A stretch of 64,000 bases of DNA from Ectobacillus sp. (lineage in GTDB: Bacteria; Bacillota; Bacilli; Bacillales; Bacillaceae_G). Each line of letters starts with the position of its first letter. Within the stretch, counting starts at the first letter, position 1. Positions 7,261-64,000 of the stretch are shown one piece after another. The position numbers and the translations under genes were made by a program. The stretch lies in contig JBHGUR010000035.1 in assembly GCA_048976805.1 (NCBI GenBank), forward strand, positions 5,069 through 69,068. The letters run 5' to 3'. A model generated the notes under the pieces. The model made no database searches. It was not told the origin of the DNA and saw only the letters and a program-made list of their open reading frames with translations.

Positions 7261-8096
7261 TTCCATTCGATTTTGAGTATTATCGCCCAGCTTCTATTGA
7301 AGAAGCAGTCCAACTTTTTAGCAAATTATATAAAGAAGGGAAAAAGCCGCTGTACTACAGCGGGGGCACGGAAATTATTACATATGCTCGGCTGAATCTT
7401 GTTTCTACAGAAGCTGTCATCGATATTAAATATATCCCTGCCTGTCATACGTACGGATCTCAGCAAGGTTTTTTGATTCTCGGTGCTGCTCTTACTTTAA
7501 CACAAATATCCGATATGAACGCATTTCCGCTACTAAGCACTACAGCCTCCCGCATAGCCGATCATACAGCGCGAAATAAAATTACATTAGGGGGGAATAT
7601 TGCTGGAGACATTCCGTATCGTGAAGCTGTTCTGCCCTTTTTATTGACAAATAGTACCTTCGTCATCGCCGGAATGGGCGGAATTCGTTACGTTCCTGCC
7701 AAGAAAGCATTTCAGGGACAACTGCAGCTATATCCCGGGGAATTTCTCGTGCAAATTGCTACGCCTGCCGAATATGCGAATGCTCCTTTTTATAGCGTAA
7801 AGAAACGGAAAAACGAAGAAATTGACTACCCTCTCATTACGCTTGCTGCGATCAAGACCGATTTTAATATTCGAACTGCTTATAGCGGATTATGTGAATT
7901 TCCATTTTGTTCAGAGAAAATGGATAGGCAATTGAATAACAAGAATATTCCAAGAGAGCAAAGAATTGAGCGGGCTGTTGCTTCTATCCCTAATTCTGTG
8001 CGCAATGATATTCGCGGTTCTCGGGAATACCGTTTGTTTGTATTGCGGAATATGCTGCAAGATGCTTTAACAGAGCTAGAAGGGGTGGAGGTATGA
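7257..8096 (+). CDS. xanthine dehydrogenase-family FAD-binding subunit
   Basis: FEYYRPASIEEA, SGGTE, RNKITLGGN motifs; ATGA overlap with the upstream gene. Confidence 0.9.
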   Translation: MIPFDFEYYRPASIEEAVQLFSKLYKEGKKPLYYSGGTEIITYARLNLVSTEAVIDIKYIPACHTYGSQQGFLILGAALTLTQISDMNAFPLLSTTASRIADHTARNKITLGGNIAGDIPYREAVLPFLLTNSTFVIAGMGGIRYVPAKKAFQGQLQLYPGEFLVQIATPAEYANAPFYSVKKRKNEEIDYPLITLAAIKTDFNIRTAYSGLCEFPFCSEKMDRQLNNKNIPREQRIERAVASIPNSVRNDIRGSREYRLFVLRNMLQDALTELEGVEV

Positions 8097-8557
8097 TTGC
8101 GAAGCTGAATCTATATGTTAACGGAGAAACGCGGGCTGTTGTGGCCAGAATGGCAGACACCCTCCTTGATATGCTACGGGATGAGCTTGGATTGACCGGA
8201 GCAAAGCGCGGCTGTGAAAACGGAGATTGCGGCGCCTGTACGGTACTAGTAGACGAAGTGCCGCTTAAGTCATGTATCATGCTTGCCGTAGAGGGAGATG
8301 GAAAGCGCATCACAACCGCTGAAGGGTTAGGAGGAGTTCCTATTCAACAAGCGTTCATTGAAAAATGGGCATTTCAATGCGGCTATTGTACACCCGGTTT
8401 CATTATCAATTGCCACGCTCTCGTCAACAGGCATCCTAACGCGAACGATCAAGTAATAAAACAATGGCTGCAATCCAATATTTGCCGTTGCACAAGCTAC
8501 CAGGAAATTGAACAAGCTGTAAAAGATGTGTTGCATAAACAGGGTGATGGCCAGTGA
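8093..8557 (+). CDS. (2Fe-2S)-binding small subunit
   Basis: GCENGDCGAC, QCGYCTPG and CRC motifs. Confidence 0.93.
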   Translation: MIAKLNLYVNGETRAVVARMADTLLDMLRDELGLTGAKRGCENGDCGACTVLVDEVPLKSCIMLAVEGDGKRITTAEGLGGVPIQQAFIEKWAFQCGYCTPGFIINCHALVNRHPNANDQVIKQWLQSNICRCTSYQEIEQAVKDVLHKQGDGQ

Positions 8558-9468
8558 CATCTGTATACGAAGTATGGGAAGCTGTCGCATCCCGCAATGA
8601 GCCTTGTGTGATGGCAACTATTATACAAACAGTTGGTTCTTCATACCAAAAAGAAGGCGCGGTGATGGCGATGTGGGAGGATGGCGCGCGGCTGGGAATG
8701 CTAAGCGCCGGCTGTATCGAAGAAGACTTGCTTTGCCGAGCGAAAGAGCTGCAAGCTGGCGGATGGCTGATTTGTGAATATGACACATCGGACGAACAAG
8801 ACTTTTTATGGACTGTCGGCTGCAACGGGCAAATTCGCGTGTTGCTGGAGCAAGTGCATACACAATGCTTGGAGCAGCTTAATGCTGTCGTAAAAGAATT
8901 TCAAAAAGGCTACGGAGTTCGAGTTATAAAAGACCTTTCTAATAATCATGCTTATTTTATCAGCGATAGCGGGCAGGCGTTTGGAAACTTGCCGAACAAG
9001 CATGGGGACATCTATGAGCAATATATTCCGCCAAAACCTCGGCTCTATATATTTGGCGCAGGAGAAGATGCAAAGCCGCTTGTCTGCTTGGCAAAAACGG
9101 TCGGCTTTTCCGTCACTGTATGCGACTGGAGAGAACAATGGTGCACCCAGCTGCGCTTTCCTGAAGCTGATGCGTGCATCATCGGATTTCCAAAAGAAAT
9201 TGTTCCTGTTTTGTCTCTTGCTTCAAATGATTTTGTTGTGATTATGACACATCATTTTCAAAGAGACCAAGAATTATGGGAACTATTAAATAAGCAATCG
9301 CTTCGTTATTTAGGCATTTTGGGAGCACGGCAACGAACGCAGCGTTTATGCGGAGGAACAATACCGGACAACGTGTTTGCCCCGGTCGGCCTTCCGATTG
9401 GCGCCCGGGGCCCGAATGAAATCGCGGTAAGCATTGTTGCGGAAATGATTCAAGTATTAAGGACGTAA
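8554..9468 (+). CDS. XdhC/CoxI family Mo-cofactor maturation factor
   Basis: LSAGCIEED, LYIFGAG, MTHHFQRD, PVGLPIGARGPNEIAVSI motifs. Confidence 0.9.
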   Translation: MTSVYEVWEAVASRNEPCVMATIIQTVGSSYQKEGAVMAMWEDGARLGMLSAGCIEEDLLCRAKELQAGGWLICEYDTSDEQDFLWTVGCNGQIRVLLEQVHTQCLEQLNAVVKEFQKGYGVRVIKDLSNNHAYFISDSGQAFGNLPNKHGDIYEQYIPPKPRLYIFGAGEDAKPLVCLAKTVGFSVTVCDWREQWCTQLRFPEADACIIGFPKEIVPVLSLASNDFVVIMTHHFQRDQELWELLNKQSLRYLGILGARQRTQRLCGGTIPDNVFAPVGLPIGARGPNEIAVSIVAEMIQVLRT

Positions 9469-9472
9469 AAAT

Positions 9473-10081
9473 ATGAATATTATCGGCCTCTATCTTGCAG
9501 CAGGGGCTGGGAAGCGAATGAAAACGGCTGTACACAAGCTCTGCCTTCCTGTAGGCGACAAGCCACTGGGGAGTATTGCCTTGCAAACTGCTTTTTCTTC
9601 CCAGCTTTCTTCTATTATTGTTGTGACGAATGAAACAGATTGGCTGCTGCCCCATTTTTACGGGGAGCGGCTTATCATTCTTTCTTGTGAACAGGCATCT
9701 CTCGGCCAAGCGTATTCCCTGCGCTGCGGCTTAGAGAAAGCCGAAAGCTTGCAAGCTGACGCAGTATTAGTTATGCTGGCGGATCAGCCGTTCATTCCAA
9801 AACAGATAATTAATGATATTTTACATAATTATAGGCGTGAACCGGAAAACGCCTATATAGCATCCTGCCACCAAGGTATTCCGAGACCGCCTGTTTTATT
9901 ATCGCGCAGCGTATTCTCGCTTCTCAAACAGCTGCAGGGCGATCAAGGGGCCCGTTCTATTTTTAACAACCCTTTCATAACAGGCAAACTTCTTTCATAT
10001 GAGGACCCAAAATGGTTTTATGATGTCGATACGCCAGAAAATTATAAAACAATCTGCCGGCAGCCTACATCTTTTTTATAG
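9473..10081 (+). CDS. MocA-like molybdenum cofactor nucleotidyltransferase
   Basis: LAAGAGKRM, LADQP, GDQGAR, DVDTPENY motifs; operon context. Confidence 0.88.
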   Translation: MNIIGLYLAAGAGKRMKTAVHKLCLPVGDKPLGSIALQTAFSSQLSSIIVVTNETDWLLPHFYGERLIILSCEQASLGQAYSLRCGLEKAESLQADAVLVMLADQPFIPKQIINDILHNYRREPENAYIASCHQGIPRPPVLLSRSVFSLLKQLQGDQGARSIFNNPFITGKLLSYEDPKWFYDVDTPENYKTICRQPTSFL

Positions 10082-10144
10082 AAAAATCCAAAGATATCCT
10101 TTAAGATATAGAAGCAAGAACAGCAATAGAAAGGATAAAGAGTT

Positions 10145-10885
10145 GTGAAAAAACTAGATGTACTGCTCATGCTGCTTAGCTTGTTGTTTCCTGTTGCCGG
10201 TATCATGAACCAAATCCCTCTGCAGTTATCATTATTTATGGGAGGGTTATTGTTTATAACAAGTTTCGGCAGCTACTTTGCTAAACGTATGAATTCGCGA
10301 ATTTTCAGTTGGGCGGCCTATACAGCATTTATTGTATTTTTGCTGTCGCTGTGGAACCAGTATGTAACAACAGATTCTCTTGTCGCAAATGTTAAAGTCG
10401 CTGCCTGCATTGCTGCTGTTCCCTTTTTATTCCGCTTCCGTACCTATGCAATCACAATCGGGCTGCTTGGATTATGGGGCGCTGTATTATGGGATGTAAA
10501 GGAGGCCCAATCATTGGCCGTTTTGCAGCGCATGATGCATACAATCCCGACGGAACGGCTATATGTATTCGCCTTGGCGTCCGGCTTTTTGCTTGGCGGC
10601 TGGCTTGGAAACATTACAACCCCTAAGGAGTGGCGGGAAAAAGCAAATAAAGCAAAAAGGAAGAAAAAAAGCCGAAAACTTACAATCCCGATGCCTAGCC
10701 TTCCAAAATTGAAAATAAAAATATGGAAATTCGGGCGAAAATCTTCTGCGCCTCAGAAAATCCGTCCGCATGAACCGGCTTATGAAGAACATATTAAAAC
10801 TGTAAACATGGAGCAAACAAGCGAGCCCGAGCCGCCCCGCGGACAAACGAGAATGGAGCGAAGAAAAAATCGGTATCGTGCTTAA
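10145..10885 (+). CDS. membrane protein with basic C-terminal tail, unknown function
   Basis: Hydrophobic N-terminal two thirds and K/R-rich tail. Confidence 0.7.
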   Translation: MKKLDVLLMLLSLLFPVAGIMNQIPLQLSLFMGGLLFITSFGSYFAKRMNSRIFSWAAYTAFIVFLLSLWNQYVTTDSLVANVKVAACIAAVPFLFRFRTYAITIGLLGLWGAVLWDVKEAQSLAVLQRMMHTIPTERLYVFALASGFLLGGWLGNITTPKEWREKANKAKRKKKSRKLTIPMPSLPKLKIKIWKFGRKSSAPQKIRPHEPAYEEHIKTVNMEQTSEPEPPRGQTRMERRKNRYRA

Positions 10886-15579: not shown

Positions 15580-18204
15580 ATGAATTCATCTGTTCTGTTT
15601 TTTAGCCAAATTAACCGCACTAGCCTTCCGCTTGTAGGAGGGAAAGGAGCCAACTTGGGAGAACTAAGCAAGGCAGGATTCCCAGTGCCTAGCGGATTTT
15701 GCGTGACAACACAGGCCTATCGGGGCTTTGTTGCTTCCAATCCGGAAATGGGTTCTTTGCTGCAAGAACTGAACCGTTTGGACTCCAACGACTTCACTCA
15801 ATTGCGATTACTGGGGGAGAGAATTCGCACCCACCTTCTCCAATTGCATATCCCAACCAAATTAAAGAATGAAATCATAGCGGCTTGGAAGGCAACGGGT
15901 TCGCAGTATGCATACGCAGTCCGTTCCAGTGCCACGGCTGAAGATTTGCCGACCGCTTCCTTTGCAGGCCAGCAGGATACATACCTAAACGTAAAAGGCG
16001 AGGAGTCATTGCTTTCTCATATCCAACAGTGCTGGGCTTCCCTTTTTACAGATCGAGCGATTTCATACAGGGCAAAAAACCATTTTGACCATCGGCAGGT
16101 GTATGTATCTGTTATCGTGCAGCGAATGGTACACCCTGAGCTATCGGGCATTATGTTTACAGCTGATCCCCTCACAGGCCATCGTAAAGTAATTACGATT
16201 GATGCAAGTTTTGGGATGGGGGAAGCATTAGTATCCGGCATTGTCTCCGCTGACCTGTATAAGGTAAAGGAGGGGAAGGTTATCGAGAAAAATATTTCCG
16301 AGAAAAGGCTAGCCGTCTTCCCGCTGCCGGAAGGGGGGACAGCCAAAAAAGAGGTGCCTTTGAAGCAACGAACCATGCAAGCATTGACAAATCAGCAAAT
16401 TTTGCAGTTAGCTGAATTGGGCAAAAAGGTGGAACAACATTTCGGAACTGCACAAGATATTGAGTTTTGTATTGAAAACGGAGACATATTCATCGTACAA
16501 AGCCGGCCCATTACGTCTTTGTACCCCTTGCCTGACATGCCGAGTGATCCGTTGCGCATTATGATTTCAGTTGGCCATATTCAAGTGATGACAGATGCCT
16601 TGAAACCGCTCGGCTTGTCCGTGTTCCAAACCATTATGCCCAAAAGTATATTAAAAACTGCAGGCGGGCGGATGTTCTTTGATTTGACAGATTTTCTTCA
16701 CTTAAAAGCAGGACAAAAAATCATCATCCAGATCCTACGCAACATGGATGAATCCATTAGCCGCGCTCTTGCAGACGTTGTGCAGCGCCCTGAGTTTAAG
16801 AAGAGCCGCTATAAGAAACAATCCATTATACTGGTTGCTAAAGCATTTCTGCCTGTCGCAAAGCAAGTGCTGAAAAATCTTTTTATCTATGATCCTTCTC
16901 TGGCAAAAGAAAGGACGGAAGAGGTGATGAGAGAATTTTCTTCCAAGGTGCAAAAAGATTTAGAGTCTTTAAACGGAACAAAGCGCTTGGAAACCATTCA
17001 GCGCTATTTAGGGCAGGTCCCGCAAGAAATATTGAAGATTTTTGCGAATCCAGTAACGTTTCTGGCGGCAGCGCTGCTCCTAAAGAAGCAGCTAACCCAC
17101 ATTATGGGGTCTGATTATGAAATTCATGTTTTAACCAAGTCGCTGCCTGGAAACATAATGAGCGAAATGGGATTGCAACTCGGCGGCTTAGCTGATTTCG
17201 TACGAAAGCACCCGGACGTAGAATCCTATCTCCAGACAGCAAAGGACGAAACGTTTTATGAAGGACTGGAAAATCTAGCAGGCGGAACAGAATTCGCGAA
17301 AATTTTCCAATCTTTTATAGAAACGTATGGAATGAGATGCCCCGGTGAAATTGATATTACAAAACCGCGTTGGAGAGAACAGCCGACTTTAATTGCGGCG
17401 AGCATATTGGGAGATGTCAAAAACCTAACGGATGGCGAATACCGTCACAATTTTGCAAAGGGACAAAAAGAAGTGGAGGAAGCAAAGGCAAGAATCTTTG
17501 CGAAAACGGAGTATCGCCGTTACCAATACAGAAAGACGAAACGGCTGATTGATGTATATCGGTATATGGGCGGATTGCGGGAGCATCATAAGCATCTATT
17601 AACTATTATTCTGGACTTATGTAAACAAGCCATCATAAAAGAAGCACAGGCATTGGTGGACGCAGGAGTTCTGCAAGAAGTTGAAGATGTGTATTATTTG
17701 ACGCTGGAGGAACTGATTCAGGTTGCAAATGGAACGTTTCAAGCGCATGTGCCGCACCTGGTAAGTGAGCGTAAAAGCCAATTTAAATGGTTCCAGACTT
17801 TAAAGCAGCCGCGTGTGCTGACAAGTGAGGGAGAAATCATTACAGGGTCTCCCAAAAAGGGAGAATATCCAGACGGCGCACTCATTGGCAGCCCGATTTC
17901 ACCAGGAGTTGTAGAAGGAATTGCACGAGTGGTGCTGTCTCCGGAAACAGCCCATTTGAACGAAGGAGAAATCCTGGTCGCACCGCATACAGATCCAGGC
18001 TGGACGCCGCTGTTTCAGTCTGCCGGGGCGTTGGTGGCAGAAGTAGGCGGCCTGATGACCCACGGCTCTATTGTCGCCAGAGAATATGGCATTCCAGCTG
18101 TAGCAGGAGTAGACGAGGCAACCAGACTCATTCAAGATGGGCAGCGGATACGGGTGGATGGAACCCGGGGATATGTGGAGATTTTAACTGACAACTCCCC
18201 TTAG
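15580..18204 (+). CDS. rifampin phosphotransferase-like protein (ATP-grasp + substrate domain + His-swivel)
   Basis: VGGKGANLGEL, VRSSATAEDLPTASFAGQQDTYLN, ISVGHIQVMTD, YGMRCPGEIDIT, GGLMTHGSIVAREYGIPAV motifs; no PEP-binding TIM barrel. Confidence 0.8.
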   Translation: MNSSVLFFSQINRTSLPLVGGKGANLGELSKAGFPVPSGFCVTTQAYRGFVASNPEMGSLLQELNRLDSNDFTQLRLLGERIRTHLLQLHIPTKLKNEIIAAWKATGSQYAYAVRSSATAEDLPTASFAGQQDTYLNVKGEESLLSHIQQCWASLFTDRAISYRAKNHFDHRQVYVSVIVQRMVHPELSGIMFTADPLTGHRKVITIDASFGMGEALVSGIVSADLYKVKEGKVIEKNISEKRLAVFPLPEGGTAKKEVPLKQRTMQALTNQQILQLAELGKKVEQHFGTAQDIEFCIENGDIFIVQSRPITSLYPLPDMPSDPLRIMISVGHIQVMTDALKPLGLSVFQTIMPKSILKTAGGRMFFDLTDFLHLKAGQKIIIQILRNMDESISRALADVVQRPEFKKSRYKKQSIILVAKAFLPVAKQVLKNLFIYDPSLAKERTEEVMREFSSKVQKDLESLNGTKRLETIQRYLGQVPQEILKIFANPVTFLAAALLLKKQLTHIMGSDYEIHVLTKSLPGNIMSEMGLQLGGLADFVRKHPDVESYLQTAKDETFYEGLENLAGGTEFAKIFQSFIETYGMRCPGEIDITKPRWREQPTLIAASILGDVKNLTDGEYRHNFAKGQKEVEEAKARIFAKTEYRRYQYRKTKRLIDVYRYMGGLREHHKHLLTIILDLCKQAIIKEAQALVDAGVLQEVEDVYYLTLEELIQVANGTFQAHVPHLVSERKSQFKWFQTLKQPRVLTSEGEIITGSPKKGEYPDGALIGSPISPGVVEGIARVVLSPETAHLNEGEILVAPHTDPGWTPLFQSAGALVAEVGGLMTHGSIVAREYGIPAVAGVDEATRLIQDGQRIRVDGTRGYVEILTDNSP

Positions 18205-53603: not shown

Positions 53604-56396
53604 TCATCCGATAGGTTCAATTTCCGCTTCAAAATTTGAAGGCTGACTGAGAGGCGCCGTATTCGGATTTATCATCATTTCATATTGGCGCAATCTTAAT
53701 TCAAATAATGTTAATGGATCATGGTATAACTCCGGTCTTGCTTTCATTTTGCTTAATCCGTCTCGGCTCGCTTGGATCTCCAAATGCGTTTCTTCTATTG
53801 TTTGCTTAAGAGTTGTGAACGGTTCCCTGAAAAACATAGTAATATCACGTTCCAACGACGTTTCGAACAGTTCGAACTGCCGGAAGAACATCGCGGAAAC
53901 AGAAGCGGCAACCTCACTATAATCCTCGTTCTCCAAATACTTTTTATATTTGTTATATAGCATCGCCTTGTTTTGCCCAAGACCGCCAAACAGTTTGCCG
54001 GCACTTTTTAATAAAAACTGAGCCGGTTTAAAACGAAGCATAATATTCACTTCATCAATTTGAATTCTACTTGTCATACGGTCCGCATCGCGCTGCCAAT
54101 CGTTTAATACTCTAAAATCGCATTTTAGCTTCATTCGCTCCTCTTCATATAAGGAATTGAATGTATCGCTCATTTCATCTAAATATGCCTGGCTTTGCGT
54201 AAACTCCTCATTCGCGTTTGCAATCCACTCCTGAATGGAACTGGAAAACTTCGGAAGTATCGTTTCTTGTAAGTAATCTTGAATTCTTTTGTTCATCTCT
54301 TCATTGAGTTCGACATGAATATGGCGGAAATCACTCTCCTCATGAATTAAATCGGAACAGCCCCGGAGAAGCTGCGGAATATTCCTGGCAATCTCCTTTG
54401 TAATATCGTCTTTGATTGTAAGATATGATTGTGCAATAATTTGTGCCTTTTCCTTTTCTAATGCGGAAAGATTATTAATAAAACCGTTCAGTTTCACTAA
54501 AATATCTTCATTCCATTGGATGGACTGAATGAAGCCATTTTCCATCTCCACCCGTTTAGCCAGCAAATACGTAATAATCTTCCTGATGAAGAACAGCAGC
54601 TTCACAATTCGCTCCTGATCAAGACTTCGATTGCTAAAGTTAAGCTTAATAAATTCAGCAAATTCGCTGAGCTGTTGATTGTTTGTATACAAAGAAGAGT
54701 ATGGGAATACCTTCGCATTCGGAAACAGTTCAGAGATTCGCTCTTTTGTTTCTTTTATAATTCTCGCAGCTTCCGCTTCATTATAAATAGTATCCATTTT
54801 ATTTAAAAGAAAATGAACAGGAAGGTCCGGTGCATACGTTTGAATTTGCGATAAAATTTCCCGCTCTTTATCTGTAAAAGGCGCCCCTGCGTTAAGAACA
54901 AATAATAAGCTATCTGCTAAATGCAAATAATTAAAGGTTTCATTTCTCTCGTTGCTGTTCGTATGAAATCCCGGTGTATCAATCAATGTTAGTGCATTCT
55001 TATTTAAAAATCTGCACGGCAATTTGAATTCAATACAGGATTCCCCGATATCCGTTGGGTGCTTCGCCGTTGTTATCTCATCAAATTCAGAAAGGTCGGA
55101 AATCGCATGGATTTGTGTATCCGTTATTTCATTTATTTCCGTACGAACATTATCATTGAATACAATTACAGTTGCAGTTGACGCACTTAAAATAGTTTCG
55201 CCCAGTATAGAATTAATAAATGCAGATTTCCCGCTTCCGCTAACTCCTGCTACGAGCAAATGGTTCGTCTTTAAATCTGCCAATTCCCGAACCCACCATT
55301 TAAAGCGGTACCCAACTTCCAATTCATTAATCTGAGCCCATTTCATAATGGATTCAAATAAATGTAAGCTATATGCAAGTCCGTCTGTATAATTATTGGC
55401 ATGATACAAGGAAGCTTCCGCATCTTTTACGACTGCGCCGCTCATACTAGAAGGGAACACTTCATTCCAAGCCAATATGCCGGCAGCAGCAAACAGCACT
55501 TGCGATTCGCCGGCCAACTTATGCCAATTCGTTAACAAGTTAGGCACGATATGATGAATTTCCTTAATTGCATACTCCCCATCAATCAGTTCGCAATATG
55601 TTTGCTCATAAAGGGCAGAGATTTCATACCAAGAATCGTACGGATTGATTTCAACATGCAAGAAAAGCTTATTAATTGTTTGAATCCATAATAAATAGGA
55701 ATCCTCGTTTTTATAGTTCCCCCATAAGGAAGACACAACTTCTTTAAAATGCACTTGATCTATTTTATATAGCGACATGAGTGCATCATAAAAATAGGCA
55801 GGCTCCATTTTTTTTGTATACCCTTTATCAATATAGTCCTTTAAAATTTGGAACCAATGAAGCGCCTCTGTCCGAATCCCTTCATTTACCGCCAGTTCTA
55901 CAGCACTGCCCCAGTCTCGTTGTTCTTCGTAAAACGCGCGGGCAAGCGCCGTTACATTCGGATAATCCGGATGCAGCGAAACAGCTCCTTTAATTACTTT
56001 AAAAGCAGATTCAAACAACTCTTGCTCTATGTAAAGAGAAAATAGCTGTAACACCACTTCTATTTGAAGTGTTTTGCTTTCTGTTGCGATGGATGTATAA
56101 ATATCTTCTGCTGTTTTAAAATCCTGAAGCTCAAAATAGGAATCTGCAATATTTTTTTTAGCCCAAGGCTCCAATTCATTATCAATTTTCTCCCATTTGA
56201 AAATAGCTGCCTCAAAATCTTTGCTGTGATAATACAACTCCCCCTGCGCGAAGCGAATATAAGATATATCGGATAGTTCATTTTTCGCCTCTGCTATATA
56301 CGCTTCCCCAAGCAATTGAATCAGATTGTTTGTCTCTGTTTCTGTGATAAATGTTTCATAATACGTCTTTTTAATCAGTTGATTTTCTAATGTCAT
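53604..56396 (-). CDS. TPR-repeat + dynamin-like GTPase
   Basis: N-terminal TPR-like helices; GVSGSGKS (G1), LIDTPG (G3), LNKMD (G4); helical C-terminal stalk. Confidence 0.8.
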   Translation of the reverse strand: MTLENQLIKKTYYETFITETETNNLIQLLGEAYIAEAKNELSDISYIRFAQGELYYHSKDFEAAIFKWEKIDNELEPWAKKNIADSYFELQDFKTAEDIYTSIATESKTLQIEVVLQLFSLYIEQELFESAFKVIKGAVSLHPDYPNVTALARAFYEEQRDWGSAVELAVNEGIRTEALHWFQILKDYIDKGYTKKMEPAYFYDALMSLYKIDQVHFKEVVSSLWGNYKNEDSYLLWIQTINKLFLHVEINPYDSWYEISALYEQTYCELIDGEYAIKEIHHIVPNLLTNWHKLAGESQVLFAAAGILAWNEVFPSSMSGAVVKDAEASLYHANNYTDGLAYSLHLFESIMKWAQINELEVGYRFKWWVRELADLKTNHLLVAGVSGSGKSAFINSILGETILSASTATVIVFNDNVRTEINEITDTQIHAISDLSEFDEITTAKHPTDIGESCIEFKLPCRFLNKNALTLIDTPGFHTNSNERNETFNYLHLADSLLFVLNAGAPFTDKEREILSQIQTYAPDLPVHFLLNKMDTIYNEAEAARIIKETKERISELFPNAKVFPYSSLYTNNQQLSEFAEFIKLNFSNRSLDQERIVKLLFFIRKIITYLLAKRVEMENGFIQSIQWNEDILVKLNGFINNLSALEKEKAQIIAQSYLTIKDDITKEIARNIPQLLRGCSDLIHEESDFRHIHVELNEEMNKRIQDYLQETILPKFSSSIQEWIANANEEFTQSQAYLDEMSDTFNSLYEEERMKLKCDFRVLNDWQRDADRMTSRIQIDEVNIMLRFKPAQFLLKSAGKLFGGLGQNKAMLYNKYKKYLENEDYSEVAASVSAMFFRQFELFETSLERDITMFFREPFTTLKQTIEETHLEIQASRDGLSKMKARPELYHDPLTLFELRLRQYEMMINPNTAPLSQPSNFEAEIEPIG

Positions 56397-56623
56397 GTTT
56401 TTCCCCCGCTATATATTTTCAAATTATGTTCATTTGAAAGGGATTAGAATTTCTCTCTTTGTGTGTCAACACTAGTATAGCTTCCTTTCTTTATGTACCT
56501 ATTCTAACAGAAACTTCTCTACTAAAAATTTCATTTTGTTTTCATTTTTGAAACAAGACTGTATAAAATTAAGATATCTCAAAATGTAAACCTTTACATC
56601 CGTTATACGCTTGTAACATAAAG

Positions 56624-56704
56624 CTACAAACTAAAATTCTCCAAGCTTTTGTCCATCATCTCCTGGTTAATTCCAATATACTTTAACGTAATGCTTGGTT
56701 TTGT
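56624..56704 (-). pseudogene. tyrosine recombinase C-terminal remnant
   Basis: TKPSITLKYIGINQEMMDKSLENFSL-stop, including the catalytic-Tyr ITLxYIG motif. Confidence 0.65.
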
Positions 56705-56761
56705 CTATATGGGGTCCCACCAGCAAAACGCGAATTTACAACGTTAAGGAAGCCCCAATAT

Positions 56762-56802
56762 AAAAAACCCAATTTCAGTATTTGAAAGAAATTGGGTTTT
56801 TT
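56762..56802. terminator. bidirectional terminator inside the left end of the transposon
   Basis: AAAAACCCAATTTC / GAAATTGGGTTTTT inverted repeat. Confidence 0.7.
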
Positions 56803-56839
56803 CAATAATCCATAAATTTGTTGTTTAGTGTTTTTATAT

Positions 56840-58069
56840 TTAGTTTGATAAATCTGTGTGGCTTAATTTATTTTCCTTAGTACTTTCACTTACCCTTAAC
56901 CAAATGTTTCCTATACATATCAAAATTGCTAGCAGAAATAAAGGTACTTTATATCCTTTAAAAATATCAATTAATATCCCAAATAAAGAAGGTGCAATTA
57001 CAATAAAAAATTGATTTATAGTTAATGCAACACTAACCGTCAAACTAATAAAATTTTTATTGGATTTTTCTGAAACAAGAACAATAAATAGACTAAACCA
57101 TCCCATGCCCAAAAAACCAATAAAGAAAGATAATATTCCGTTTGCCCAAAAGGGGAGATAAGAAGAGAATATAGCCAATAATATAATAAATATTACAGTA
57201 ACCCACATTGTTAATTGTAAAGGTACACTTCTATTCCCTTTAAAAATTGTATCACTCAACCAAGCTAATATTATTCTTCCAAGCATTCCACCTAATAAAG
57301 AAATACTAAGTAATAGTCCAGAAGAAGATAAATTAATGTTTAAGCTATTTGAAAAGAAATTCATTAAATGAGCAACAATAATTAGTTGTAATGAAACCAT
57401 TATTCCACCGACAAAAAATATGGGATACAATTCATGATTGTTTTTAATAATCTTAATTTTTGTCATGAATGTATAATTGCTTTCTTTATCTTTGGTAATT
57501 TTTAAGTCTTTATAAAATAACAAAAATACTAAACCACCTATAATTGTTAATGTTCCTTGAACAATTATGGCGGAAGATAACCCAGATTTATAATAAAAGA
57601 AAGGTAATATACCTGAAGCCAATGCCCCACCGACTGGAATTCCGGTTTGCCGAATACCCATTGCAACGCCTCGATGTTTTTTGGGGAACCACTTAACAAT
57701 TGCACTGCTTCCTCCGGGTTGAGCTGTGCCATACCATATACCTACTAAAGTAAGAATTCCTAGAAAAAGAAAATAGTTATTTGTTAAATTAACAACAAAA
57801 ACATTTAATCCTAATAAAATTGCCCCGATTCCTACAATCCATTTTTCCCCATATTTATCCATTAAATTTCCGAATATAATCATAGAAAATATAGGTCCAA
57901 TATTAACAGCAGATACAATTAAGCCAGTTTCAAAATGTGATAAATTATGTTCTTTTTGATAAAAAGTTGCTAAGGGGCCCATACCATATGTAACAAAAGT
58001 TGCACACATTTGAGCTAATGTAGCTATTAATAAAATAATCCATTTATATCTTCCCTGTTCATATATCAT
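56840..58069 (-). CDS. MFS transporter (transposon cargo)
   Basis: About 12 TM helices; GNLMDKYGEK loop, WFPKKHRGVAMG, AWLSD motifs; AT-rich. Confidence 0.9.
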   Translation of the reverse strand: MIYEQGRYKWIILLIATLAQMCATFVTYGMGPLATFYQKEHNLSHFETGLIVSAVNIGPIFSMIIFGNLMDKYGEKWIVGIGAILLGLNVFVVNLTNNYFLFLGILTLVGIWYGTAQPGGSSAIVKWFPKKHRGVAMGIRQTGIPVGGALASGILPFFYYKSGLSSAIIVQGTLTIIGGLVFLLFYKDLKITKDKESNYTFMTKIKIIKNNHELYPIFFVGGIMVSLQLIIVAHLMNFFSNSLNINLSSSGLLLSISLLGGMLGRIILAWLSDTIFKGNRSVPLQLTMWVTVIFIILLAIFSSYLPFWANGILSFFIGFLGMGWFSLFIVLVSEKSNKNFISLTVSVALTINQFFIVIAPSLFGILIDIFKGYKVPLFLLAILICIGNIWLRVSESTKENKLSHTDLSN

Positions 58070-58170
58070 TATTAATCCTTTCTTAAACAATTAAGTTTTA
58101 TTTATTGTTTTATATAATTGATTTAAAGCCTTCCAAAATATCAATATATGTTTTTGGAAGGCTTTAGAAA

Positions 58171-59196
58171 TTATATTGTCACAGCCTCATGAACAGGAGT
58201 AAAAACCCGTTTCTTAACCTGTTTTAGATTCCTATGATTCCATAAATCTGGAGCAACAAGAACTCTTTGTACCCACCGAAGAGCATTTCCATTTTTATCA
58301 AAAGTAGGAACAAACTGATCACGTGAATGTAGTGTAAATCTATTATTTACATAAATAAGGCGTCCTGGAGCAATATCTACTCCAAAACCTACTTTCTGAA
58401 TTGCTGTATGGAAATTTTTAAGCGCACTATCTGCCTCACTATTTTGAGGAGATACCATATCAGGATAAAAAGCAACAGAAATTTCTGGAGAATTATTTTC
58501 TCCTTGTATAATTGGAACTAAGTCAGTCACTTGCATGTCACCAGGAATAGATAATCTCCATCTATATGGAACTTTAATTTGATAAATAGGTTGTTTTAAT
58601 AAATCAATTTCTTTTTCTGATAAAAGGTTAAGAGCTTCTCTCGCATCTGATATCCGAGTGAGAGGTTTTTGAGGATCATGGCGTACTCCTGTTAAAATTA
58701 GACCAGAGGGAGAGAAATTCCAATCACCCATAAATTTAAGGGCTGCATTTTCTATATGAAAATCTAATTCTACTTCGGATCCTAACCCTGTATATTCCTT
58801 TTTATTCTCTATCTTGGGAATTAAATTGTTAACAATTTCGTGTCCTTCATGCAACATAGAGTAAGGCTCCCCAATTAGTGAACTAATAGTCATAATTACA
58901 TTTTCGCTTATAAATCCAGATTTAGCCTTTGGATTAAATTTTTGTGGGTCTGGTGTTGTATATACAATATCATCTACAGGGAGGTTTTCAATCAAAATAT
59001 AGGGACAAGACGATAATGAGGCTTTTATCTCGTTAAGACGCTCTAATATTCTAGGAGGTAATGCATTAAAGCCTATTTTTCTTACCTCAGTCACATATTG
59101 AAAGGAGCCAGTAGGATCATATGAGATCTTATTAAGTTCTTTGTATAAAAAATCTCTTTCGCTATCACTTAAAGTAAGTATAAATTTTGAATTCAT
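58171..59196 (-). CDS. Fe(II)/2-oxoglutarate oxygenase, clavaminate synthase/AsnO/TauD-like (transposon cargo)
   Basis: LDFHIEN (HxE), VNNRFTLHSRDQF (distal His), RWVQRV (2OG Arg); AGGAG RBS. Confidence 0.82.
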   Translation of the reverse strand: MNSKFILTLSDSERDFLYKELNKISYDPTGSFQYVTEVRKIGFNALPPRILERLNEIKASLSSCPYILIENLPVDDIVYTTPDPQKFNPKAKSGFISENVIMTISSLIGEPYSMLHEGHEIVNNLIPKIENKKEYTGLGSEVELDFHIENAALKFMGDWNFSPSGLILTGVRHDPQKPLTRISDAREALNLLSEKEIDLLKQPIYQIKVPYRWRLSIPGDMQVTDLVPIIQGENNSPEISVAFYPDMVSPQNSEADSALKNFHTAIQKVGFGVDIAPGRLIYVNNRFTLHSRDQFVPTFDKNGNALRWVQRVLVAPDLWNHRNLKQVKKRVFTPVHEAVTI

Positions 59197-59494
59197 TTTT
59201 TCATCTCCTATAAGCTTATTTTAAATAAAAGTGCTTATGTAATTTCAAAAGATGTTATGAATTAAAATATGAATTTTCTCCTTTCGCTATTTTATTAAGC
59301 CATATGCGTTACTATAGAATAGCTATTTGTCAAAATCAACATATTATGTAAAACTTTACCAAATATAAAAATAAGTAATATTTATGATAAAATTTTCAAG
59401 AAAATAAAATAATTTTTACGGATTAAACATATGTGGCAGTACCTAATGGAATAACATTAATAACGTTTTAAGCAAGTAAGAATGTTTCATGCAT

Positions 59495-59612
59495 GTGCCC
59501 TTTCAAAAAGCATACTTTATGACATGTTGGAAATCATGTATTATTTCCGTGTCATAAAGTGTGTTTTTTATTTTTGAAATATTTTATATTGTTGATATAC
59601 TTTTTGACATAG
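59495..59612. promoter_or_regulatory. putative res site
   Basis: Repeated TACTTT(A/T)TGACA half-sites at 59513-59524 and 59598-59609, inverted at 59550-59560, upstream of the resolvase. Confidence 0.6.
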
Positions 59613-59643
59613 TTTAATAGTTTTTCAGAAGGAGTTGCTATTA

Positions 59644-60255
59644 TTGAAACTTGGATATGCTCGTGTTTCGGCTAAGGATCAGAATCCAGAACGACAGCTA
59701 AAAAAATTTCGCGATCTAGGAATTGAAGAACGATATATTTTCATTGACAAGCAAAGTGGGAAAGATTTTAACCGACCGCAGTATCAGGGGATGCTTTTAA
59801 TTATTCGCGAAGGGGATTTACTATACCTTGATGCTCTGGACCGATTGGGTAGGGATTACGACGGTATCATTCGAGAATGGAAGTATATTACTCGGGATCT
59901 GAACGCAGATATTGTGGTCCTGGAAAATGAGACACTTTTTGATAGTAGGAAATTCCGAAGTATGGGTGATCTTGGAAAATTAATGGAGGACCAATTTTTA
60001 AGTCTACTTTCTTATGTGGCTGAGCAAGAGCGTAAAAAAAATAAGCAACGCCAGGCTGAAGGAATTGAAGTGGCAAAGAATAACGGCGTTAGATTCGGAC
60101 GACGTAAATATGAAATTAATGAGGACTTCATTCAAGTATATGATGAGTGGAAATCTGGATTAATCACTGCGACGGAAGGAATGAAGCGTCTTGATGTAAA
60201 GCCAAATACTTTTTATCGACGTGTAAAGGAGTATGAAAATCAAAGAAAGGCGTGA
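59644..60255 (+). CDS. tnpR: serine resolvase
   Basis: GYARVS, DKQSGKDFNRP, LDRLGR, C-terminal HTH; TTG start after GAAGGAG. Confidence 0.93.
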   Translation: MKLGYARVSAKDQNPERQLKKFRDLGIEERYIFIDKQSGKDFNRPQYQGMLLIIREGDLLYLDALDRLGRDYDGIIREWKYITRDLNADIVVLENETLFDSRKFRSMGDLGKLMEDQFLSLLSYVAEQERKKNKQRQAEGIEVAKNNGVRFGRRKYEINEDFIQVYDEWKSGLITATEGMKRLDVKPNTFYRRVKEYENQRKA

Positions 60256-63212
60256 AGATCTTGCGTGGAAAAGAACTTCTTACAATAGAGCAACGGCAAG
60301 AGTGGATGACCCCTCCTAATGGCGAATGGGAACTTGCTACTTACTACACCTTTTCGCAACATGATTTAGAAATAATTAATCGTCACCGACGAGACTACAA
60401 CCGGTTAGGCTTTGCCGTCCAATTAGCACTACTTCGTTATCCCGGATGGAGCTTAACCGATATATGGGAAGTTCCAGATTTCTTGCTTGATTTCTTAGCA
60501 AAACAGTTGGATATTGAGCCAAAAGTTTTTTCCCAATATGCTCGAAGAGAAAATACGCTATGGGACCATCTGAAAGAAATTCGTGAGAAATATGGATTTA
60601 CCACATTTACACCAAACGATTATCGAAGGTTGTTGAAGTATTTATTTAAACTTGCAATGGAAAATGGGAATACGATTCATTTGATTCGTGAGGCATTGGA
60701 CGAGCTACGTCGCTCAAAAATCATCCTTCCGGCAATTACAACAATTGAGAGGCTTGTATGGGAAGCACAGCATCGCGCAGAAGAGCGTATTTATAGCCTA
60801 ATCCACTCTGCACTAACAATTAACCAAAAAAAGAAACTGGACAAGCTTATCGAACCTATAGTTGGTACAGGAAAAACAAAACTTGGGTGGTTAAAGGAAA
60901 CAACAGGACAATTCTCTCCTGAAGCCTTTTTAAAAGTTATTGAACGGTTAGAATATATACGGAGTTTACAATTAAATATTGATACTAAAGAAATCCATCC
61001 CCATCGGCTCAGACAGCTCTCACGACTAGGTGCAAGATACGAGCCATATTCTTTTCGACGCTTCCATGAAACAAAACGATATACAGTATTAGTGGCGTAC
61101 CTTTTGGACCTTAGTCAAGATTTGGTAGATAGGGCATTTGAAATCCACGATAAACAAATCTTAACCTTGCAATCAAAAGGCCGGAAACAACAAGAGGAGC
61201 TTCAGAAACAAAACGGCAAAGCCGTGAATGAAAAAGTTGTCCATTATGCCGACTTAGGTGATGTCCTTATCAAAGCACGGGATGAGGGCCTTGATCCTTT
61301 TGTTATGCTAGAAACAGTAATGCCGTGGGACAAGTTTGTTGAATCTGTAGAGGAAGCGAAAAAACTATCGCGCCCTCTTAATTATGACTATTTAGATCTT
61401 TTAGAGAGTCGATTTAACTATCTTCGAAAATACACGCCTACCTTACTAAAAGCATTTGAGTTTCGTTCAACAAAGTCAGCTGAACCGTTGATAAAAGCCC
61501 TCGATACCATTAAAGAAATGAATGATACCGGTAAAAGAAAAGTACCTGAAGGTGCACCTTTAGATTTCGTATCTAATCGATGGCAAAAACATGTATTTGA
61601 TGATGATGGGACTATTCATCGACATTACTACGAGATGGCAGCTTTGACAGAATTACGAAATTATGTAAGATCGGGGGATGTTTCCATAGTTGGAAGTAGA
61701 CAGCATAAAGATTTCGACTCCTATCTGGTTTCACAAAATGAATGGAAATCTATACATACAACTGGCAGCAGATTAGCAGTAAATCTAAATGTGGAAGAAT
61801 ATCTTGAGGAGAGAACTACATCCCTACTACATCGATTACGTTGGATCAGCGAAAACATCGATGAACTTGAAGGTGTTAACTTTGAAAAAGGCAAATTACA
61901 TGTCCATCGGCTTGAAAAGGACGTTCCAGAAGAGGCAAAAAAATATAGTGCCACCCTCTATAGCATGCTGCCACGAATAAAGCTGACAGATTTACTTTTA
62001 GAGGTAGCAAGTTGGACAGGGTTTGATGAACAATTTATCTACGCATCCACCAATCGACCACCTAAAGGGGAAGAAAAAACAATTGCACTGGCAGCTCTTA
62101 TGGCAATGGGTACCAACATCGGATTAACCAAAATGGCTGATGCAACACCTGGTATCTCTTATCACCAAATGGCCAATGCATCTCAGTGGAGATTGCATGA
62201 GGATGCAATGAATAGAGCACAAGCTACTCTTGTAAACTTTCATCATCGTCGTTCATTAGTCTCCTATTGGGGGAATGGAAGCACATCCTCCTCTGATGGT
62301 ATGCGCGTGCAAGTAGGGGTTTCTTCCCTTAGTGCCGATCCTAATCCACATTATGGCTCAGGCAAAGGAGCGACTATTTATCGATTCGTTAGCGATCAAT
62401 ATTCATCTTTCTATTCAAAAGTAATTAATACAAACGCTCGCGATGCAGTTCATGTTATCGATGGCCTTTTGCATCATGAGTCAGATTTATCAATCGAGGA
62501 GCATTCTACAGATACAGCTGGCTATACAGATCAAATTTTTGGATTGACCCATCTATTAGGATTTAAGTTTGCTCCACGTCTACAGGATTTGTCAGATTCG
62601 AAGCTTTATGTAATTGGAAAACCTGGAGATTTTCCAGAATTCCAAAATTTACTACGTGGTCAAATTGATATGAAGGTCATACGTGAAAATTACGATGATG
62701 TTCTACGTTTAGCGCATTCTATTCAAGAAGGGAAAGTGTCAGGTGCACTTATTATGGGTAAGCTAGGCTCTTATGCTCGACAGAACAAGGTTGCTAAGGC
62801 ACTTAGGGAGATGGGTAGAATTGAAAAGACGATCTTTATCTTAGATTACATCTCAAGTGAATCAATCCGTCGGCGAATTCAACGAAGTTTAAATAAAGGA
62901 GAAGCAATGAATGCTTTGGCACGGGCTATTTTCTTCGGGAAACATGGAGAATTGAGAGAACGTGCTTTGCAGGATCAGTTGCAGCGTGCAAGTGCTTTAA
63001 ATATCCTAATAAATGCTATTAGTGTTTGGAATACGGTTTATCTAGGCGAGGCCACAGATTTACTCCGGAATAAAGGAGTGTTACGAGAAGATTTATTAAA
63101 ACATATTTCTCCATTAGGATGGGAGCATATCAACTTACTAGGTGAGTATCGCTTTGATCAAAAAGGGTCTACTACCTTAGAAACATTACGGCCGTTGAAC
63201 GACCAAGGATAA
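60252..63212 (+). CDS. tnpA: Tn3-family transposase
   Basis: RRDYNRLGFAVQL, SSSDG, HSTDTAGY, LNKGEAMNALARAIF, SPLGWEHINLLGEY motifs; 986 aa, uninterrupted. Confidence 0.97.
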   Translation: MKILRGKELLTIEQRQEWMTPPNGEWELATYYTFSQHDLEIINRHRRDYNRLGFAVQLALLRYPGWSLTDIWEVPDFLLDFLAKQLDIEPKVFSQYARRENTLWDHLKEIREKYGFTTFTPNDYRRLLKYLFKLAMENGNTIHLIREALDELRRSKIILPAITTIERLVWEAQHRAEERIYSLIHSALTINQKKKLDKLIEPIVGTGKTKLGWLKETTGQFSPEAFLKVIERLEYIRSLQLNIDTKEIHPHRLRQLSRLGARYEPYSFRRFHETKRYTVLVAYLLDLSQDLVDRAFEIHDKQILTLQSKGRKQQEELQKQNGKAVNEKVVHYADLGDVLIKARDEGLDPFVMLETVMPWDKFVESVEEAKKLSRPLNYDYLDLLESRFNYLRKYTPTLLKAFEFRSTKSAEPLIKALDTIKEMNDTGKRKVPEGAPLDFVSNRWQKHVFDDDGTIHRHYYEMAALTELRNYVRSGDVSIVGSRQHKDFDSYLVSQNEWKSIHTTGSRLAVNLNVEEYLEERTTSLLHRLRWISENIDELEGVNFEKGKLHVHRLEKDVPEEAKKYSATLYSMLPRIKLTDLLLEVASWTGFDEQFIYASTNRPPKGEEKTIALAALMAMGTNIGLTKMADATPGISYHQMANASQWRLHEDAMNRAQATLVNFHHRRSLVSYWGNGSTSSSDGMRVQVGVSSLSADPNPHYGSGKGATIYRFVSDQYSSFYSKVINTNARDAVHVIDGLLHHESDLSIEEHSTDTAGYTDQIFGLTHLLGFKFAPRLQDLSDSKLYVIGKPGDFPEFQNLLRGQIDMKVIRENYDDVLRLAHSIQEGKVSGALIMGKLGSYARQNKVAKALREMGRIEKTIFILDYISSESIRRRIQRSLNKGEAMNALARAIFFGKHGELRERALQDQLQRASALNILINAISVWNTVYLGEATDLLRNKGVLREDLLKHISPLGWEHINLLGEYRFDQKGSTTLETLRPLNDQG

Positions 63213-63460
63213 TAATGAGCACCGGTTACACCTTATCGTGGTGAAAACCGGTTATTTTTTTACTCAGATTTCCTTAGCGTTGTAAATTCGCGTTTTGCTG
63301 GTGGTACCCCTATATGAATTTATGTAAGAATCTGTTAAAAGGATTATCTCCGACAGTATCAGAATACATACCGAGAATAGGATTGTACTAGCAGCGTTCT
63401 GATTTTCCATATGTTGAATATATTAGAAAACAGAAGAGACTACTATAGGGAGGCTGTTTT

Positions 63461-63909: not shown

Positions 63910-64000
63910 ATCGAGTAGGAGAGGGTGACTAACCCTCGACCTCTCACACCACCGTACGTACCGTTCGGTATACGGCGGTTCAACTAAGTATGACGCAATT
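63910..64000 (-). mobile_element. group II intron class IIC, 3' end (domains V-VI); remainder lies outside the window
   Basis: Minus strand reads GAACCGCCGTATACCGAACGGTACGTACGGTGGTGTGAGAGG..CCTACTCGAT; CGC triad and short D5. Confidence 0.9.

Follow-up and report, generated by a model that had tools for sequence, protein, structure and literature searches.

What function is served by two genes, one for an Fe(II)/2-oxoglutarate (2OG) oxygenase and the other for an MFS permease, that are carried together by a transposon? This question is raised by a locus in a 64,000-nucleotide stretch of Ectobacillus sp. DNA, the whole of which is referred to here as the window. A sequence-only reading had described two co-oriented ORFs, at 56840-58090 and 58171-59196 of the minus strand, as cargo of a transposon. 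Both ORFs are present as described, and both genes lie inside 41-bp inverted repeats (IRs) flanked by TATAT (Table 1).

Table 1. The transposon, its cargo and the flanking duplication, in window coordinates
Feature	Position	Strand	Evidence
Target-site duplication, left copy, TATAT	56706-56710		Direct sequence reading; 5 bp
IRL, 41-bp terminal inverted repeat, GGGGTCCCACCAGCAAAACGCGAATTTACAACGTTAAGGAA	56711-56751	+	Inverted-repeat pair
Intrinsic terminator 3' of the MFS gene	56756-56802	-	15-bp stem followed by U-tract; -17.7 kcal/mol, z-score -3.6
MFS permease, 409 aa, resembling the anion-symporter/exchanger type	56840-58069	-	PF07690, E 2.4e-44
Strong hairpin in the oxygenase-MFS intergenic gap	58124-58166	-	-20.5 kcal/mol, z-score -6.8
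Predicted clavaminate-synthase-like Fe(II)/2OG oxygenase, 341 aa	58171-59196	-	TauD/CAS-like profile matches, AF2 model, Foldseek
Non-coding region, cargo promoter side followed by putative res region	59197-59634		
tnpR, serine resolvase, 203-206 aa	59635-60255	+	PF00239, E 3.6e-23
tnpA, full-length Tn3-family DDE transposase, 986 aa	60252-63212	+	PF01526, 9e-152; DUF4158
IRR, 41-bp terminal inverted repeat	63270-63310	-	Inverted-repeat pair
Target-site duplication, right copy, TATAT	63311-63315		Direct sequence reading; 5 bp

Positions 56711-63310 of the window are an intact and complete single-copy Tn3-family transposon of 6.6 kb. The terminal repeats are 95% identical across 41 nt and both begin with GGGG; they may resemble the Tn4430-type IRs of Gram-positive bacteria. 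A DDE TnpA of about 1000 aa, related terminal IRs of at least 38-40 bp and a 5-bp duplication, by which the Tn3 family is recognized, are all present, and TnpA scores 1021 bits against NF033527 (cut-off 500), aligning with profile positions 5-954 of 954. The element landed at an intergenic site in a Bacillales chromosome, creating the 5-bp duplication. Its components follow the order IRL, cargo, putative res, tnpR, tnpA and IRR, which is a Tn501-like colinear layout. Transposons of the Tn501/Tn21 type share with it the TnpA of about 1000 aa, the serine resolvase, a res site (putative in the present element) upstream of tnpR, GGGG-starting terminal IRs, the 5-bp duplication and a cargo between IRL and res (PMC7157771), but carry mer or antibiotic-resistance genes in place of a predicted amino-acid oxygenase and a permease, and the present host belongs to the Bacillales.

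Apart from the cargo pair, tnpR, tnpA and short ORFs nested in the latter two, there is no ORF of at least 60 aa inside the element, and the oxygenase and MFS genes are thus its sole passengers, as had been proposed. The AT-rich promoter side of the cargo ends at approximately 59450 and is followed, upstream of tnpR, by a conserved region that is common to related transposons and contains an inverted repeat (59505-59569); we consider it a candidate res whose subsites are unmapped. Mesobacillus foraminis and a metagenome supply tnpR-tnpA-IRR backbones of 90-93% identity. The boundary of the cargo is set by two of the related backbones, L100 and L101, in which the homology begins at window positions 59448 and 59500, respectively, and extends rightwards only; the tnpR orthologues of both encode 203 aa. 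A related IR was found in L100, L101 and L005, and a search for a left IR in L100 and in L101-103, all 90-93% identical in the tnpR-tnpA-IRR part, did not find one. Searching 30 relatives with the joined flanks did not recover an uninterrupted site, owing to a lack of conservation in the intergenic region, and the insertion is therefore undatable by this approach. An identical insertion is present in one other assembly, which at 99.97% identity does not constitute an independent observation.

The cargo was also said to be more AT-rich than tnpA and the host genes, and this is borne out by a GC content of 29.8%, compared with 39.2% for the transposon backbone (39-40% for tnpR/tnpA) and 41.1% for the rest of the window. 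The corresponding GC3 values are about 20% for the cargo, 31-33% for tnpR/tnpA and 33-40% for the rest of the window. Moreover, the oxygenase gene was found in none of 30 host relatives. The cargo is thus a foreign AT-rich two-gene module placed between IRL and the putative res, and the pair does not belong to the housekeeping genes.

In the AF2 model of the oxygenase (pLDDT 90.9), the double-stranded beta-helix is CAS-like, which identifies the protein as an Fe(II)/2OG oxygenase of the free-amino-acid type, sharing the fold of CAS and AsnO. The best Foldseek matches of the model are AsnO, KDO1, NapI, VioC, OrfP and CAS, with an E-value of 1e-28 to AsnO and TM-scores of 0.80-0.83 to AsnO and KDO1 and of 0.74-0.83 to KDO1, VioC, OrfP, NapI and CAS. 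The HxE...H triad noticed in the sequence-only reading is genuine: H147-I-E149 and H290 align with H155/E157/H287 of AsnO (PDB 2OG5-7), and the three iron ligands are invariant among 59 homologues. The predicted 2OG arginine, R307, is conserved, as is the putative amino-acid anchor E117/N150/R311, equivalent to E125/N158/R305 of AsnO. The window enzyme therefore shares with AsnO, VioC, OrfP, NapI, KDO1 and CAS the fold, the triad, the 2OG arginine and the residues holding the alpha-amino and alpha-carboxylate groups.

Assignment to the clavaminate synthase/AsnO/VioC group consequently stands as far as fold is concerned, but does not extend to orthology. The protein is only 16-24% identical to these oxygenases, and its NCBIfam matches to GntD (4e-26), CS1 (5e-20) and VioC (9e-16) all fall below the equivalog cut-offs (92 versus 345, 72 versus 450 and 58 versus 419 bits, respectively). 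To judge from these comparisons, it is not orthologous to AsnO, VioC, CAS, GntD or the lysine hydroxylases, the identity being about 23%. It also differs from AsnO and the CAS-like oxygenases in its partner, which is a transporter and not an NRPS or other biosynthetic cluster. With 25.2 bits it also misses the gathering cut-off of Pfam TauD (PF02668, 27 bits), for which most homologues have a precomputed match, and it is a borderline divergent member of that family. No enzyme of this subfamily is named in the review PMC11611013.

The active site differs from those of the known enzymes in two respects. The side-chain-binding Asp of AsnO, D241, is replaced by A242-F243-Y244, which is A/V-F-Y across the family with F and Y invariant; the alignment reveals no counterpart of this Asp, of the RxDP Asp of the Arg enzymes or of the KDO1 FD motif. 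The lid carries R212-W213-R214 within a family-invariant PYRWR motif with two arginines that is unique to this family. Because of these two features, the substrate is predicted to be other than Asn, Arg or Lys; our best guess is an amino acid with an acidic side chain, of the Asp or Glu type.

The MFS protein scores 152 bits against PF07690 (cut-off 33.4) and covers profile positions 2-347 of 347. Its ORF reaches the TTG at 58090, as originally given, but the start is most likely the ATG at 58069, preceded by the RBS GAAAGGA, and the resulting 409-aa form is the version on record. The best partial matches are to PgtP/OPA, D-galactonate (ACS), aromatic-acid, lactate and oxalate/formate transporters, although the cut-offs of the ACS and OPA subfamilies are missed (TIGR00881, 95 versus 408; TIGR00893, 80 versus 395). 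Among solved structures, it comes nearest to DgoT and SLC37A4, and NCBI labels homologues 'sugar phosphate permease'. Similarity to DHA efflux pumps falls short as well (TIGR00880, 31.5 versus 131, 1.6e-7; NorA, E 3e-4). By its resemblance to PgtP, DgoT and SLC37A4, to which it is closest, the MFS protein would be a 12-TM-class permease of the organic-anion symporter/exchanger type and not of a drug-efflux type. PADLOC returned no matches for the oxygenase, the MFS protein or the resolvase, and a role in anti-phage defence was rejected.

The subfamily of the window oxygenase is spread across Bacillales, Pseudomonas, Serratia, Photorhabdus, Bartonella, Burkholderia, Pantoea and Legionella. In the tree, the uncharacterised family to which this oxygenase belongs appears as two clades, A, which includes the window enzyme, and its sister B. 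A survey of gene neighbourhoods showed that in all 39 clade-A loci the oxygenase gene adjoins a gene for an anion-type transporter, MFS or AEC. In Bacillales the partner is the same MFS, with orthologues 61-71% identical to that of the window, whereas in Proteobacteria an AEC-family carrier lies 3-20 bp downstream of the oxygenase gene in its place. The oxygenase and the transporter are thus an evolutionarily conserved functional pair, and the possibility that the homologues are ubiquitous housekeeping genes unlinked to the MFS is contradicted by this adjacency and by the 30 relatives that lack the gene. ATP-grasp ligases are never present in clade-A loci. Clade-B oxygenases, with catalytic and lid motifs nearly identical to those of clade A, reside in small peptide gene clusters with two or three ATP-grasp ligases, an aminotransferase and a DHA2 efflux pump (224 versus 230 for DHA2 EmrB); one such cluster is found in Pantoea. 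Clade B is clearly biosynthetic, and this setting implies that the family product serves there as a building block.

The reading that we tentatively favour, although we would not call it probable, is that the pair takes up an anionic amino acid and hydroxylates it at C-beta, as an accessory salvage or detoxification trait. The permease would import an L-alpha-amino acid that is anionic or polar, or a compound closely resembling one, and the oxygenase would hydroxylate it with O2 and 2OG; C-beta, the position used by AsnO, VioC and KDO1, is the probable site. The hydroxy-amino acid would then be handled by host or co-located enzymes. Candidates for this step are a beta-hydroxy-amino-acid dehydratase, since on B. 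cereus plasmids a PLP enzyme like Thr/Ser dehydratase or 3-hydroxyaspartate ammonia-lyase is encoded between the oxygenase and MFS genes, and a D-2-hydroxyacid dehydrogenase as in Pseudomonas and Bartonella, the gene for which adjoins the pair in 12 loci. Chromosomal copies have adjacent MocR, LysR or GntR-FCD regulators. These neighbours incline us towards uptake and catabolism, and so does the likeness of the MFS protein to anion importers and exchangers, as opposed to the DHA2 pump of clade B. The presence of the pair in host-restricted Bartonella was counted on the same side. Counted against uptake were the MFS family assignments, which lie far under curated cut-offs, and the fact that the MFS and AEC families both include exporters. 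Furthermore, the transposon encodes neither a downstream catabolic enzyme nor a regulator, so that, in a host unable to process it, the hydroxylated product could go no further.

This last point is also an argument for a serious rival, the first of the two options raised in the sequence-only reading, namely that the oxygenase acts on an amino acid common inside the cell and the permease exports the hydroxylated product as an antimetabolite, signal or metal-binding compound. A two-gene module lacking downstream enzymes works in any host only if its substrate is ubiquitous, and the near-identical active-site motifs in the ATP-grasp/aminotransferase/DHA2 clusters of clade B suggest a common intracellular substrate. 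In B. songklensis, the pair is immediately preceded upstream by genes for an IDO-like dioxygenase and an EamA exporter. The IDO of B. thuringiensis is linked to an exporter. That locus resembles the present one in combining a free-amino-acid 2OG hydroxylase of a Bacillus with a small-molecule transporter, but IDO is a member of PF10014, a family unrelated in sequence, and its product is known. IDO provides a precedent for the production of a free hydroxy-amino acid (cited in PMC11611013). Were this explanation correct, the transposon would spread a minimal producer trait. However, clade A is devoid of ligases and its transporters are of the anion-uptake/exchange type and not DHA, LysE or RhtB exporters. 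The dehydratase and 2-hydroxyacid dehydrogenase neighbours and the catabolic-style regulators suit degradation better, and Bartonella is an unlikely antibiotic producer. We regard production and export as somewhat less likely than uptake. The frequent pseudogenes among the homologues are neutral in this respect.

A further explanation draws on the taurine system, in which TauABC-mediated uptake is followed by oxygenolysis by the 2OG oxygenase TauD. The logic of a transporter plus one Fe/2OG oxygenase of the same Pfam clan, serving as an accessory nutrient module complete in itself, is similar, but the window enzyme is CAS-like with an amino-acid anchor, and its partner is an MFS or AEC carrier and not an ABC importer. 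By analogy, the permease could import an anionic amino-acid analogue such as sulfo- or phosphono-alanine, cysteate or an O-phosphoserine-like compound, bound by the PYRWR lid, and hydroxylation beside the heteroatom would free sulfite or phosphate; a transporter and one enzyme would then suffice, in keeping with a self-sufficient two-gene module. The lid arginines could serve as a binding site for a sulfonate or phosphonate. Among partial matches, organophosphate/phosphoglycerate (OPA) transporters rank first for the MFS protein, whose homologues are named sugar phosphate permeases, and five Pseudomonas loci encode a TauE/SafE-family anion exporter close to the pair, immediately upstream of it in one case (L024). 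All this support is circumstantial, though: the position of TauE varies and may merely reflect the local gyrB-proximal region, and the known relatives with the CAS-like fold all hydroxylate without fragmentation. We consider such scavenging improbable. If true, a clavaminate-synthase scaffold would perform TauD/PhnY-style chemistry, which is not among the known reaction classes of this fold, in a mobile module carried by Tn3-family transposons and plasmids.

The mobility of the pair is not confined to the window. A Virgibacillus plasmid carries the same oxygenase-MFS pair beside Tn3-type ends, with a different transposase; a search for the terminal IR pair of that element found MFS-side ends only and none past its tnpA. 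The cassette has kept its place beside such ends, although the genes for transposition and resolution were exchanged. The pair is also present on B. cereus plasmids, and a plasmid-database search for clade-A homologues returned none. The view that this is not standard Tn3 cargo is fair, but needs to be qualified by the Virgibacillus pair and by the great diversity of Tn3-family passengers, which include catabolic genes (PMC7157771). Mobility, together with a patchy distribution and frequent loss, would suit a resistance cassette in which the oxygenase inactivates an amino-acid-like antibiotic, for example a clade-B-type product, and the permease expels the antibiotic or its product; kinship to enzymes of antibiotic-like clusters offers a natural source of the substrate specificity. 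This is unlikely, as no curated resistance model was matched and the MFS protein matches drug-efflux models only weakly. To our knowledge, there is no case of antibiotic inactivation by a CAS-like hydroxylase.

Finally, the cargo could be an inert hitch-hiker, decaying or unexpressed in its present host. Many homologues are broken: Neobacillus retains a 119-aa fragment, the genes of H. coagulans and Schinkia are truncated, and Bartonella has copies with multiple stops. The terminal branch of the window oxygenase is long (0.38). Yet the two genes of the window have their full length, every catalytic residue is kept, an RBS and a terminator are present, and the transposon itself is intact with a perfect target duplication, all of which makes inertness very improbable. 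The terminator touches the inner edge of IRL. The hairpin between the two genes is possibly a partial terminator or attenuator, and non-homologous hairpins occupy the equivalent gap in four other loci (L005, L012, L014 and L098). Neither the Rfam search of eight loci at gathering score nor that of window 56600-59700 at E up to 1 revealed a relevant riboswitch or leader, and a promoter scan of this AT-rich DNA did not exceed shuffled expectation.

The transposon and its cargo do not overturn current understanding. They point to a widely distributed, uncharacterised subfamily of putative free-amino-acid hydroxylases that is set apart by its lid motif and has a transporter as obligate partner. 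There is demand in biocatalysis for regio- and stereoselective amino-acid hydroxylases, and one acting on a new class of substrate would be of use. Under the favoured reading of uptake and hydroxylation, the transposon would spread a small trait for salvage or detoxification that is useful under certain conditions and belongs to no known resistance class. The Tn3-family repertoire in Gram-positive bacteria would thereby gain a metabolic passenger related neither to resistance nor to virulence, a small metabolic trait moving between genomes.

The anatomy of the transposon is secure. A terminal pair of repeats (IRL and IRR, left and right) stands out in an inverted-repeat search of the window, and TATAT borders the 6.6-kb element at either end. 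Between the repeats lie, in order, the MFS gene, the oxygenase gene, a non-coding stretch and the genes for a serine resolvase and TnpA. Tn501 is laid out alike, with colinear res-tnpR-tnpA and passengers next to IRL; family features and repeat length were compared using PMC7157771. The element is a Tn3-family transposon, an already known kind, present as one copy in the 3.53-Mb genome and inserted between the genes for a dynamin-like GTPase and a DUF2935 protein. Immediately to the left of the insertion, some 75 nt are 79–88% conserved in four same-genus genomes; the remaining intergenic DNA is not conserved, and the 75-nt stretch has no match in Rfam.

Coordinates of the transposon, its cargo and other features of the window
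Feature	Position	Strand	Details
IRL and IRR	within 56711-56766 and 63255-63310		41 nt, 95% identical, start GGGG
MFS permease	56840-58090	(-)	PF07690, E 2.4e-44
Oxygenase	58171-59196	(-)	341 aa, TauD/clavaminate-synthase-like
Non-coding stretch, oxygenase to resolvase gene			438 bp
tnpR, serine resolvase	59635-60255
tnpA, full-length Tn3-family TnpA	60252-63212		NF033527, 1021 bits vs cut-off 500
Conserved stretch	56624-56698
Dynamin-like GTPase	53604-56396	(-)	930 aa, directly left of insertion; weak PADLOC match to LeoA (E 1e-12)
Group II intron domain (RF00029)	63910-63980	(-)	downstream of DUF2935 gene; 45.3 bits vs gathering score 40
PEP-synthase/rifampicin-phosphotransferase-family protein	15580-18204	(+)	874 aa; best named relative Priestia flexa, 68% identity

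The two cargo genes lie exactly where the sequence-only reading had placed them. Its claim that they are more AT-rich than tnpA and the host genes also holds, with 29.8% GC in the cargo versus 39.2% in the backbone (tnpR-tnpA-IRR) and 41.1% in the rest of the window; GC3 is about 20% in the cargo and 31–33% in the backbone. The cargo forms a foreign module of its own. Mesobacillus foraminis and a metagenome contain backbones 90–93% identical to window 59448/59500-63311, and in both the DNA to the left of that point is unrelated to the window. A Neobacillus chromosome carries decayed cargo alone (86.6% identical over window 56824-58568; oxygenase cut to a 119-aa fragment, MFS split), with no Tn3 genes beside it. 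No oxygenase homologue occurs in any of 30 host relatives, of which 8 share its genus, 10 its family and 12 its order. On a Virgibacillus necropolis plasmid, the same pair adjoins a tyrosine recombinase and a 1016-aa TnpA only 25% identical to that of the window. Two Tn3-type ends follow just past the MFS gene, the first a degenerate copy homologous to the window IRL and the second, 55 bp further out, an intact GGGGTACCACCAGCA... end. The cassette has therefore been kept beside such a repeat while the transposition and resolution genes were swapped. The junction TGTCTATAT/GGGG (host flank, target duplication, IRL start) at window 56702-56714 is identical to positions 10583-10595 of the Virgibacillus locus (L005), beside the degenerate IRL-like repeat; nine identical nucleotides outside the repeat are unexpected for independent insertions.

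The likely start of the MFS gene is ATG 58069, which is preceded by a GAAAGGA ribosome-binding site; the product then has 409 aa, as in the entries of public collections. A terminator lies 3' of this gene, abutting IRL, and a strong hairpin separates it from the oxygenase gene (-20.5 kcal/mol, z-score -6.8). Since non-homologous hairpins, some with U-tracts, recur at the same intergenic position in other Bacillales, the expression levels of the two genes may differ. A search for riboswitches at the cargo gave no hit.

The oxygenase is a member of the CAS-like amino-acid oxygenase subfamily, likewise an already known kind. The HxE...H triad seen in the sequence-only reading is present as H147-I-E149 and H290. 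NCBIfam gave partial matches to GntD, clavaminate synthase 1 and VioC, and as every equivalog cut-off was missed widely, orthology to a characterised enzyme is ruled out. The AlphaFold model, built with 59 homologues as input, is confident (pLDDT 90.9); its top Foldseek matches are AsnO, KDO1, NapI, VioC, OrfP, CmnC and clavaminate synthase (E 1e-28 to 1e-21, TM 0.74–0.83, 16–24% identity), and sequence and profile searches of the PDB ranked these relatives in the same way. Compared with AsnO, the iron-binding residues are conserved, the 2OG-binding R301 is kept as R307, and E125, N158 and R305, which hold the alpha-amino and alpha-carboxylate groups, are kept as E117, N150 and R311. A free L-amino acid or close analogue would therefore fit as substrate. 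The enzymes for Asn, Arg and Lys use an Asp to recognise the side chain; the oxygenase has A/V-F-Y there, F243 and Y244 being invariant. In AsnO a lid segment (residues 208–223) closes over the substrate; in the window's family this segment contains an invariant P-Y-R-W-R, absent from every solved relative. Because the Asp is replaced, the lid is distinctive, the anchor residues are kept and a characterised orthologue is lacking, the substrate is predicted to be non-cationic and probably anionic. The D241N variant of AsnO accepts aspartate, which fits a need to lose this Asp for acidic substrates. There is only a small chance that the enzyme serves TauD-style oxygenolytic scavenging.

Homologues are 69–73% identical to the oxygenase in Bacillales and 42–58% in Proteobacteria. 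The neighbours were scored in 80 fetched loci, from one genome per species. A maximum-likelihood tree, unrooted and without characterised-enzyme outgroups, has two clades (SH-aLRT 100% each), with the window's copy in clade A. A transporter gene adjoins the oxygenase gene in all 39 clade-A loci. The same MFS (61–71% identity) is found in six Bacillales loci, and also on B. cereus plasmids and the B. pumilus chromosome; ten Bartonella have an MFS of the same type (33–41% identical), and in 23 Proteobacteria an AEC (Mem_trans) carrier lies 3–29 bp downstream. That the pairing persists while one anion-carrier family is swapped for another argues strongly for a single compound handled by both enzyme and transporter. 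In the Pseudomonas putida group (L021-L024, L032) the oxygenase-AEC pair lies just after dnaA-recF-gyrB, with a TauE/SafE-family anion exporter and a GMC oxidoreductase nearby in varying positions. Broken copies are frequent in clade A, namely in Bartonella, Neobacillus, H. coagulans, Schinkia, B. xiamenensis and Thermolongibacillus, which fits a conditionally useful accessory trait; that the pair is an inert remnant is the least credible reading considered. The module is decaying in Bartonella: the oxygenase has 1–8 in-frame stops in seven loci (L038, L088, L061, L062, L037, L051, L082), and the MFS is fragmentary in five of the ten (L038, L051, L061, L082, L091).

In clade B (Burkholderia, Paraburkholderia, Variovorax, Robbsia, Pantoea and Rahnella plasmids) the oxygenase is accompanied by a DHA2 efflux pump and by ATP-grasp ligases, two or three in number. 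The Pantoea and Rahnella loci also have an aminotransferase, joined in Pantoea by an FMN monooxygenase; in Legionella a flavin reductase, racemase and L-amino-acid ligase accompany the oxygenase. Clade B looks biosynthetic. The Pantoea agglomerans plasmid NZ_CP126682.1 (5907-14990) encodes TetR, the TauD-like oxygenase, a DHA2 MFS, three ATP-grasp ligases, an aminotransferase and an NtaA/DmoA FMN monooxygenase. This compact cluster, also on a Rahnella sikkimica plasmid and with relatives in Variovorax and on chromosome 3 of Burkholderia, appears to be an uncharacterised cluster for the biosynthesis of small peptides.

For the clade-A pair we infer the function and tentatively favour the reading that the transporter would take up an anionic or polar amino acid and the oxygenase would hydroxylate it, as an accessory salvage or detoxification trait. 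This is suggested by the transporter types, by the efflux pump that the biosynthetic clade B has instead, by the presence of the pair in Bartonella and by recurrent neighbours: a Thr/Ser-dehydratase-type PLP enzyme on B. cereus plasmids (also resembling 3-hydroxyaspartate ammonia-lyase, BhcB and EutB), D-2-hydroxyacid dehydrogenases in Pseudomonas, a gammaproteobacterial MAG and Bartonella, and MocR, LysR or GntR-FCD regulators. A flavin reductase is a further recurrent neighbour. The sequence-only reading had proposed either a make-and-export or an import-and-inactivate module; transposon cargo and an enzyme-transporter pair are borne out, and make-and-export, not favoured here, is a rather unlikely but serious rival. 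The sister clade shows that the product can serve as a building block, a module of only two genes that lacks a downstream enzyme is simplest with a ubiquitous substrate, and B. songklensis has a parallel dioxygenase-exporter module next door. At that locus (4702-10471) MocR is divergent from the genes for the IDO-like PF10014 dioxygenase, EamA transporter, CAS-like oxygenase and MFS, which make up two adjacent amino-acid dioxygenase-transporter modules. Resistance is improbable, if slightly less so than scavenging. The main value of the element lies in an uncharacterised transporter-coupled hydroxylase family and a possible new substrate class.
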